Source of the DNA: Octopus sinensis
Lineage: Eukaryota
Direction of reading: 5' to 3'
Length of the DNA stretch: 64,000 nt
Assembly: GCF_006345805.1 (NCBI RefSeq)
Contig: NC_043012.1
Location: 10,664,001-10,728,000 of the forward strand
Shown one piece after another: positions 12,050 to 48,402 of the stretch. The notes beneath the pieces were generated by a model that saw only the letters and a program-made list of their open reading frames with translations, had not been told where the DNA came from and made no database searches. Both the position numbers and the translations under genes were made by a program. Positions within the stretch are counted from its first letter, which is position 1. Each line of letters begins with the position of its first letter.

Positions 12050-12590
12050 ATAGAGGACGTCACCAACAGTGCAAATTACAGGAAATACGTAAACAACGAG
12101 AAAAAATGGAAAACAGGACAAGTAAATACAGAGAAAGGACTCGTCATCAGTTGTCGGCTGTCTATCTACTCCTCTTTTCGAGCATTTATCGACAATATGA
12201 GTTATCGAAGAGTTGCTCCCATAAATTCTAAAATAAAATTTAGGATTTATGGACGGTCAAAGTTGGAAACAAGAAAAAATGACAATGGAGACACACAAGG
12301 AAACCGAACGAAAACAAACATAGCGGGGTGGGTCGTTTGACCAGAACGAGAGGAAAATAGTGAACGCTGGGAGAAACATTTTTTTGAAAAGGGAAAACAT
12401 AGAGAGAGAAAACACGTCCACTCTTTTAAACGTCCGTGCAAGAAAAGAAAGATGGTCACGTGAGGAAAAGAATGGTGGACGATGGTCACGTGTGAGCAAC
12501 GAGAGAGAGAGAAAAAAAAACAAGAGAAGAGTGGTAGAGAGAGACAGATACAAAACGTGAAGGAGGGATGGGGAGAAATATATAAAATAT
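12050..12590 (-). mobile_element. Pyrimidine-rich non-coding element carrying a rearranged hammerhead
   Basis: Flanked by TA-rich microsatellites. Sequence 3' of the ribozyme resembles 48090-48133. Confidence 0.65.
12139..12215 (-). ncRNA. Rearranged (non-circularly permuted) hammerhead ribozyme motif
   Basis: Minus strand: CUCAU-A-UUGUCG...GCUC-GAAA-AGAG...CGACAA-CUGAUGA-C-GAGU. Confidence 0.72.
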
Positions 12591-47199: not shown

Positions 47200-47219
47200 A
47201 ATATATATATATAAATATT

Positions 47220-47665
47220 CTGTCCTTACCTTCGAAACACGCATGGAGTCGAACCAGGGACAGCTGATGAAGGGGAATATTCCTTGTATTATTTGTCTTG
47301 TACCCTGTTTTTTCGTTGTTAAAAAAAGTCCGTTTCCATGTTTGTTTTTATGTTTTCGTTTCTCGTTGAGTTCTACGTCTATTTGTGGTGTCCTGTACTC
47401 ATATATATATATATGCATGTATATATACATGTAGTTGTAGGTACGTACATATATGTATGTATGCATATATTTTATTTATTAAATTATTGTATGACTGAGC
47501 GCCCTCACGTCGTTTCGTTTCGTTTCTTTTCTTTTCTCCAAGTAAGTTTTTATATATAATTATGACGCGAATCTCTGTAACCCTTTGCTTGACCTTCCTT
47601 CCTGTCTGTCTGTATTCCTCTTTGCGTGTCTCTCTCCTTCTTATTTTTCACCCTTTCTGGTTTCC

Positions 47666-47701
<36 letters not shown>

Positions 47702-48214
47702 TCCTCATCTCTCTCACTGCTGAGACGACCAACTTCCTTTCACTCGCTGCCTTCTACAAGTCAACACGACTTTTTTCTTGCGCTCTGAATTTTTCCATCG
47801 TCTAGGCTTAAAAAAAGGCCATCAATGTTGGTTTCCTTGTCCTGTTTTTATTCTTTATGTGTACTGTATTTTTTTGTATTTGTATTTTTATTTTTATTTT
47901 GTATTTGTATTTTTATTTGTATTGCTTTTACGTCCTGTTCTTGTCACATTTTTTCTTTCCTTGTTTTTACCCCTCTGCAAAGGAATTTTATTTAATTCTT
48001 TTGCAGGAAGGATTGATTCGACGGGTCGTGTTCTGTCCTTACCTTCGAAACACGCATGGAGTCGAACCAGGGACAGCTGATGAAGGGGAATATTCCTTGT
48101 ATTATTTGTCTTGTACCCTGTTTTTTTCGTTGTTAAAAAAAGTCCGTTTCCATGTTTGTTTTTATGTTTTTGTTTCTCGTTGAATTCTACATCTATTTGT
48201 GGTGTCCTGTACTC

Positions 48215-48251
<37 letters not shown>

Positions 48252-48402
48252 CTATATATATATATATGCATGTATATATACATGTAGATGTAGGTACGTA
48301 CATATATGTATGTATGCATATATTTTATTTATTAAATTATTGTATGACTGAGCGCCCTCACGTCGTTTCGTTTCGTTTCTTTTCTTTTCTCCAAGTAAGT
48401 TT
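47220..48402 (+). mobile_element. Retrozyme/pLTR-like non-coding element with ~330-370 bp direct repeats (period 813 bp)
   Basis: 47220-47549 repeats near-identically at 48033-48402, and each repeat carries GAAA and CTGATGA core strands. Confidence 0.8.
48015..48088 (+). ncRNA. Rearranged (non-circularly permuted) hammerhead ribozyme motif, intact core
   Basis: CGUGU-U-CUGUCCUU / CCUUC-GAAA-CACG / AGGGACAG-CUGAUGA-A-GGGG. All three stems can pair. Confidence 0.8.

Follow-up and report, generated by a model that had tools for sequence, protein, structure and literature searches.

A decayed copy from an octopus repeat family with a likely self-cleaving hammerhead motif of the non-circular SGC type

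A Non-coding Repeat With a Rearranged Hammerhead Motif

The window analysed here is a stretch of 64,000 nt from the genome of Octopus sinensis which, on its minus strand, holds a 5'-truncated copy of a non-coding repeat (12563-12013; family A) that ends in a TA-rich tract. This copy is 77% identical to a natural tandem copy at another locus (L379), where the tandem unit measures 901 bp, and 83-88% identical to 29 other loci. A related insertion on the plus strand (47218-48402; family B) comprises about 1.4 units in tandem, with a spacing of 813-853 bp and position 47218 repeated at 48031. Units of 790-900 bp, all non-coding, are found in dispersed, partial-tandem and inverted layouts. First-look searches of the 2.72-Gb genome returned 4,608 candidates for the 12-kb copy and 4,483 for the 48-kb copy, and exact patterns for the motif blocks G and C described below gave 4,985 matches with a B-type stem II and 1,827 with an A-type stem II, as opposed to 1 each for the reversed-pattern control. 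Contigs of sequencing runs whose labels name two other organisms also align to the family B stretch, at 82% or more.

On the minus strand of the 12-kb copy, the segments of a hammerhead ribozyme follow one another in the order cleavage site (block S), GAAA (block G) and CUGAnGA (block C), i.e., SGC, and as a consequence of this order all three stems cross. Block S (12201-12190), assigned from sequence and covariation, contains the 5' strand of stem III, CUCAU, with A17 (12201-12196) and the 5' strand of stem I, UUGUCG (12195-12190), with the predicted cut between 12196 and 12195. Six nucleotides separate it from block G (12183-12172), which is composed of the stem II strand GCUC (12183-12180), GAAA (12179-12176) and the 3' strand of stem III (GAAA then AGAG). 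A 15-nt linker (12171-12157), which includes AGUA at 12170-12167 and the 3' strand of a fourth helix, P0, adjoining stem I, leads to block C (12156-12139), i.e., the stem I 3' strand CGACAA (12156-12151), CUGAUGA (12150-12144), an extra C (12143) and the stem II strand GAGU (12142-12139). Upstream lie a hairpin that folds into 8+5 bp with one mismatch (12252-12219) and the damaged 5' strand of P0 with the damaged GAA side of an internal loop (12212-12203), where two bases have been lost after 12212 and those at 12204 and 12203 differ from the majority. Downstream, a UUGUCC tail (12121-12116) is complementary to the 3' strand of stem I, as seen in minimum-energy folds of natural copies. The original prediction had placed the blocks and the upstream hairpin at these minus-strand positions, and both were recovered from the sequence.

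Every core base of a type-SGC hammerhead is kept in the window copy, with an A-A pair at position 15.2 due to an A at 12175 where the family has U. In comparison with 33 relatives, two upstream bases are missing and those at 12204, 12203, 12143 and 12141 differ. The A-A pair, together with these lost and changed bases, marks the copy as a decayed family member; judged by its sequence, it would cleave poorly or not at all and would make a poor assay substrate. In agreement with the expectation that the family consensus would repair stem III, 31 of the 33 relatives read GAAAUGAG, with U at 15.2. An extension of stem III by ACUC/GAGU, also put forward at the outset, found no support: the ACUC at 12202-12199 reuses the CUC of stem III itself in a shifted register, and that at 12213-12210 is present only because the window copy has lost two bases carried by 29-30 of the 33 relatives. 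This extension was rejected, the true fourth helix being the one between the 5' flank and the linker (P0).

An intact counterpart of the motif is found in the family B insertion (48027-48088, plus strand), with CGUGU-U, CUGUCC, CUUC-GAAA-CACG and GGACAG-CUGAUGA-A-GGGG, and the 5' end of this insertion lies at most 2 nt from the predicted cut of the upstream unit (48032/48033). In B-type subfamilies, CCUUC can additionally pair perfectly with GAAGG (48042-48046 with 48082-48086 in the window), possibly as a slipped form of stem II in which G8 and A9 would be buried; this off-register pairing is absent from family A.

Descriptor and Database Scans

A strict descriptor, which required at least 5, 4 and 3 further pairs in the stems and was tried in all six block orders, matched the whole window only at the 48-kb copy, the 12-kb copy being missed because of its A-A pair at 15.2. 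Run on 30 dinucleotide-shuffled versions of the window, the same descriptor had 0 matches for all six orders, in line with the earlier claim that the pairing exceeds chance. Among the loci related to the two copies, the SGC order was matched in 9 of 30 for family A and in 19 of 30 for family B, and other orders in 0-1. Rfam covariance models returned no hammerhead family among the 8 matches up to E=10 at 12090-12300, nor among the best 150 of 188 matches over the whole window, and a metagenome pattern scan gave 25 matches, none of which passed more than the minimal descriptor.

Conservation and Covariation of the Stems

When 150 copies with an apparently intact upstream part were clustered, they formed ten clusters of at least two copies, plus 14 singletons. 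Across these clusters, which total 136 copies, position 17 is occupied by A, C or U and in no case by G, the cleavage triplets are mostly GUC, GUU, GUA or AUA, and position 7 varies only as the core permits. The 51 copies that were aligned, all selected on these very blocks, show no variation in CUGA.GA and CGAAA, and the 15.1-16.1 pair is A-U in 76 of 77 copies, block S having played no part in their selection.

Pairing was scored on an unedited MAFFT alignment of the 51 copies (up to six per cluster), which gave 91.2% pairing over the four helices and 165 double-change cells, a level attained in 0 of 500 shuffles and compared with 40-56% in slid registers; MAFFT misregisters six family A rows in block S, and the pairing figures are thereby lowered. 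Shuffle controls can be beaten by related sequences. A parsimony test was also run on 77 copies, using a tree with the positions of stems I and III masked and with block S set by best pairing over seven offsets; it counted 21 Watson-Crick switches in stems I and III, and at each position 69-77 of the 77 copies are paired. Subfamilies that are sisters of family A have changes on both strands of these stems, as in CGUAU/AUACG and UUGUUG/CAACAA. Stem II, of 4 bp with two G-U pairs in most subfamilies, is paired with few double changes, a near-constancy that is partly imposed by the patterns used to select copies. At the level of aligned sequence, compensatory change is thus demonstrated for stems I and III and for the fourth helix, and it extends over at least 10 subfamilies, as anticipated by the original prediction, which held the topology to be kept between subfamilies.

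A Fourth Helix and the Predicted Folds

In P0, the 5' flank pairs with the linker between blocks G and C; the helix is 82.6% paired, with double changes in 4 of its 5 pairs, and in all subfamily majorities 0-3 nt separate its 3' strand from that of stem I, which follows. Between P0 and stem III, seven subfamilies present GAA opposite AGUA, an internal loop that we take to be a sarcin-ricin-like motif, and subfamilies B, F and G have no such loop. A K-turn reading of this loop fits A, C and J and was dropped in view of the U at position 2b in D, E, H and I. For the Eckert-type helix between the linker and the 3' tail, a 5-bp test gave 50.2% pairing, a level not above that of shuffles or slid registers. 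At the position of the upstream hairpin, the majorities of other subfamilies carry hairpins of different sequence.

The minimum-energy folds of natural copies, computed by a program that cannot model pseudoknots, favour non-hammerhead hairpins. Mostly there are three of them: the upstream hairpin, one that combines P0 and stem III, and one in which block C pairs with the tail. This three-hairpin arrangement is likely an inactive fold, and within it the UUGUCC tail (12116-12121) is predicted to act as a decoy. A second cleavage site at the tail was also considered and discarded, as no UH precedes the complementary stretch in families A and B.

5' Ends Around the Predicted Cut

Copy ends were read in a sample of 93 copies of one subfamily, chosen by an anchor 117 nt downstream. 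For the 5' ends, 21 rows were dropped (5 belonging to other subfamilies and 16 with internal indels beyond which the element continues), and in the 72 copies kept, 13 ends lie within 16 nt on the 3' side of the predicted cut; the equally long stretch on its 5' side has 1 (p=0.0009), and the 16 nt that follow further downstream have 5 (p=0.048). Other subfamilies gave 19 versus 4 hand-read 5' ends (p=0.0013) in a pattern-selected set that is blind to ends nearer than 3 nt to GAAA, and family A gave 9 versus 4 among 79 copies, which is not significant (p=0.13). Most 5' ends do not lie on the predicted bond but stop 5-10 nt short of it, and already inside the ribozyme, at +39 to +1, their rate is up (0.28 per nt). 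In the reference copy the hotspot contains no TA/AT dinucleotide, and its flanks contain 3-4. Taken from genomic copies, the pile-up just 3' of the predicted cut in the younger subfamilies appears to be a trace of cutting.

Subfamily C has a second cluster of 5' ends, with 6 at -172 to -177 from GAAA, just downstream of a GGCTTAACAGCC stretch (L208, L245, L258, L268, L276 and L281). At L192, L197 and L370, the 5' end, at or near the predicted cut, is fused directly to a short segment from the 3' end of the element itself, in inverted orientation.

3' Ends, Target and Candidate Mobilising Partner

At the other extremity, 75 of the 93 copies stop at a single point or just short of it, and 10 run about 45-50 nt further, to 3-19 nt past AAGTAAG; (TA)n adjoins nearly all 3' ends of this sample. 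The copies thus show traits of Penelope-like elements (PLEs): two fixed 3' ends, the tail being optional, truncation at the 5' end, copies in partial tandem and inverted arrangement, and a (TA)n target. In families A, B and C, the AAGTAAG sequence, which resembles a splice donor, is located near the unit 3' end and precedes the tail (47541-47549 and 48393-48401 in the window; L379; L265). No matching splice acceptor was confirmed, and an upstream AG was rejected as such for not being conserved (CGG in D, E, H and I). PLE pLTRs have been reported, in the accessible text, to hold an intron start (Craig et al., 2021).

No copy joined to a PLE ORF, including a Naiad ORF, was found in L001-L060 and L111-L380, and the motif is absent from the full-length autonomous elements of L091-L098. 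As no ORF-linked copy was found, the mobilising partner is one that we infer. Elements with an RT plus, at the C terminus, a GIY-YIG nuclease, with open frames of 775-781 aa, are present in the same genome. Open-frame PLEs, accompanied upstream by an overlapping ORF with a length of up to 479 aa, were noted at L091:2032-4377 (plus strand) and L097:2542-4869 (minus strand) and in C1, C3, C6 and C19, and the occurrence of several near-identical open-frame copies suggests recent activity. The RT/GIY-YIG elements carry a CX4CX2C motif before the nuclease and are Neptune-like by the published description, so far as its available part goes (Craig et al., 2021). No homology between the repeat unit and the pLTR of an RT/GIY-YIG element was found among the families sampled, for which 150 of 5,029 GIY-YIG candidates were scored. 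A family copy lies within 1.5 kb of 5 out of 30 GIY-YIG loci, always on the 3' side and in mixed orientation, and at L127 a family copy is nested in the TA tail of another element. Given the mixed orientation and the nested copy, this proximity is read as a shared target and not as direct ORF linkage. At L070 and L071, GIY-YIG matches of a kind unlike PLE nucleases probably belong to a host SLX1-like gene.

Relation to Known Hammerheads and Retroelements

The type-SGC hammerhead is a non-circular permutation defined by Eckert et al. (2023; PMC10085705), whose accessible text gives validated cleavage rates of 0.007-0.13 per min and describes rearranged ribozymes from assembled metatranscriptomes, with RefSeq searched too; the available part of the supplement contains "Octopus" 0 times. 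With the type-SGC ribozymes of that text (HRIMA-1 and SGC variants), the octopus motif has in common the S-G-C order, the full core and the three crossing stems, and with the validated ones also the single extra nucleotide after CUGAnGA and the short U-rich S-G linker. However, the fourth helix described there joins the linker to the 3' tail, whereas that of the octopus motif is a covarying 5'-flank/linker helix, and stem II is G-U rich in the octopus motif only. A further paper (PMC13725137), in the sections available, merely cites the permutation study.

Animal PLEs and retrozymes carry type I motifs only, according to the accessible parts of the reports concerned (PMC4209133; PMC7229834; bioRxiv 10.64898/2026.07.22.740005). 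The pLTR hammerheads of PLEs, as described in the portions available, resemble the octopus motif in their terminal-repeat site, the extra nucleotide between 9 and 10.1 and the G10.1-C11.1 pair, and the elements resemble each other in tail signature, AT-rich targets and partial tandems; yet those hammerheads are type I, often minimal, with a small or absent helix III, whereas the octopus motif is SGC with a full 5-bp stem III and no ORF (PMC4209133; PMC11167929). The second of these sources, in its available text, sets out a tail mechanism and reports for the anole PLE that the hammerhead needs protein, that catalytic mutants are without effect on in vitro insertion and that no RNA-seq reads end at the site. 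Animal non-LTR retrozymes, proposed in the accessible text to be non-autonomous PLE derivatives, share with the octopus element non-coding tandem units with one hammerhead each, but theirs is type I in RNAs of about 170-400 nt, in contrast to the SGC motif in mostly dispersed and truncated units (PMC7229834; bioRxiv 10.64898/2026.07.22.740005). Dimer dependence is described, in the same available texts, for animal PLE hammerheads (PMC4209133) and for amphibian retrozyme hammerheads (PMC7229834). Naiad PLEs, by the available account, target (TA)n, occur in Octopus spp. and have no detectable hammerhead; they share with the octopus element the (TA)n targets, the tandem and inverted structure and the tail, but they encode EN-RT, and the octopus motif was linked to no Naiad ORF in the loci examined (Craig et al., 2021).

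In the literature covered, mostly outside subscription journals and without bioRxiv supplements, no cellular genome was found to have been reported as carrying an SGC hammerhead. The fold class is already known, and what appears to be new is its occurrence in thousands of copies of an animal retroelement, where its fourth helix is a different one and cutting has left a genomic trace. The octopus repeat itself may already be catalogued in Repbase or Dfam.

A Proposed Mechanism and Its Alternatives

We consider it probable that the window copy is a decayed member of a high-copy, non-coding and likely Penelope-mobilised family bearing a predicted, likely self-cleaving SGC hammerhead, and the octopus element is best read as a non-autonomous Penelope-type retrozyme. 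Transcripts of the element would be cut after NUH, and a Penelope-type RT/GIY-YIG protein, supplied in trans, would nick (TA)n and copy the RNA from an internal start. Cut RNAs would then give rise to copies ending at the cut site, and uncut or re-ligated RNAs to longer, more-than-unit copies. The three-hairpin fold may keep the RNA in an inactive state for much of the time, the active form presumably being either a monomer with P0 open or bent, or a complex that takes block C from a second unit. Against this reading stand the non-significant pile-up in family A and the second 5'-end cluster, for which the ribozyme offers no explanation; stem II is weak, the minimum-energy folds are non-hammerhead and an Eckert-type fourth helix is unsupported. 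Additionally, no ORF-joined copy was found in L001-L060 and L111-L380, nor the motif itself in the full-length autonomous elements of L091-L098.

A variant of this mechanism that differs in the active species, and that we regard as somewhat unlikely, is that the motif cleaves only between two copies, with block C coming from the neighbouring unit in a tandem transcript. If P0 and stem III formed a stiff rod abutting stem I, block C could not reach its own S/G loop, and the 0-3 nt between P0 and stem I in all subfamily majorities, the GAA/AGUA loop in seven of them, the frequency of tandem copies and the dimer dependence described for PLE and amphibian retrozyme hammerheads (available texts of PMC4209133 and PMC7229834) are consistent with such a geometry. 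However, validated SGC ribozymes work with zero-nucleotide helix links (PMC10085705, accessible text), P0 may open to leave a linker of 10-16 nt, and subfamilies B, F and G dispense with the loop. That the structure instead serves another job, such as RT/endonuclease binding or RNA stability, with catalysis vestigial or protein-dependent and irrelevant to transposition and with the 5' ends reflecting RT stalling or joining, is improbable in our judgement, even if it would accommodate the anole PLE, with its protein-dependent hammerhead, normal in vitro insertion of mutants and lack of RNA ends (PMC11167929, in the part available), the climb in 5'-end rate within the ribozyme and the second cluster. 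Such a role would leave unexplained why position 17 is only A, C or U and why position 7 varies only where the core allows, and 5' ends become sharply fewer 5' of the predicted cut; in the reference copy the hotspot is poorer in TA/AT than its flanks, and an RT that reaches it would already have displaced every downstream partner strand.

Mobilisation by machinery that is not Penelope-like, i.e., a LINE, or by a Naiad-type PLE whose "missing" hammerhead would be the SGC motif, is about as improbable as such a non-catalytic role. The absence of an ORF-linked copy from the loci examined leaves room for it, and Naiads lack a detectable hammerhead, target (TA)n and are present in Octopus spp., according to the accessible account (Craig et al., 2021), but the same loci show no link between the motif and a Naiad ORF, and the two fixed 3' ends with a tail, the partial tandems and the adjacent inverted copies are PLE hallmarks that argue against a LINE. 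Finally, it is scarcely credible that the pairings are a product of chance or an artefact of shared ancestry: the copies are indeed related, and related sequences can outdo shuffle controls, but the 21 compensatory switches on the stem-masked tree, the pairing of 69-77 of 77 copies and the absence of matches in 30 shuffles largely refute this explanation.

Wider Implications

At a more general level, we tentatively suggest, at slightly less than even chances, that non-circular hammerheads extend beyond viroid-like environmental RNAs, in that an animal retroelement lineage would have borne and diversified one over thousands of genomic copies, with cleavage in vivo and with the cut RNA serving as a template for retrotransposition, of which the 5' ends would be the record, the fourth helix acting as a switch or enforcing an obligate dimer. 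If true, a non-circular RNA permutation would exist at high copy in a cellular genome, and its copies would provide a dated series of natural compensatory variants for work on structure and kinetics. Tandem repeats may offer a route to this permutation, with S, G and C drawn from three successive units. PLE families described as ribozyme-less may also have SGC-type motifs as their undetected ribozymes: since the motif is invisible to type I-III descriptors, surveys limited to these can miss whole ribozyme families, and "hammerhead-less" PLE clades are worth re-scanning. The family also bears on the in vivo role of PLE hammerheads, as in the anole element cleavage is dispensable in vitro and no RNA ends were seen (PMC11167929, available text), and octopus 5' ends cluster at the predicted cut. 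The same genome also has ordinary type I (CGS) hammerheads in other repeats (upstream in L097, and in L093, L100 and L109), and in some of these hammerheads stem III is minimal.
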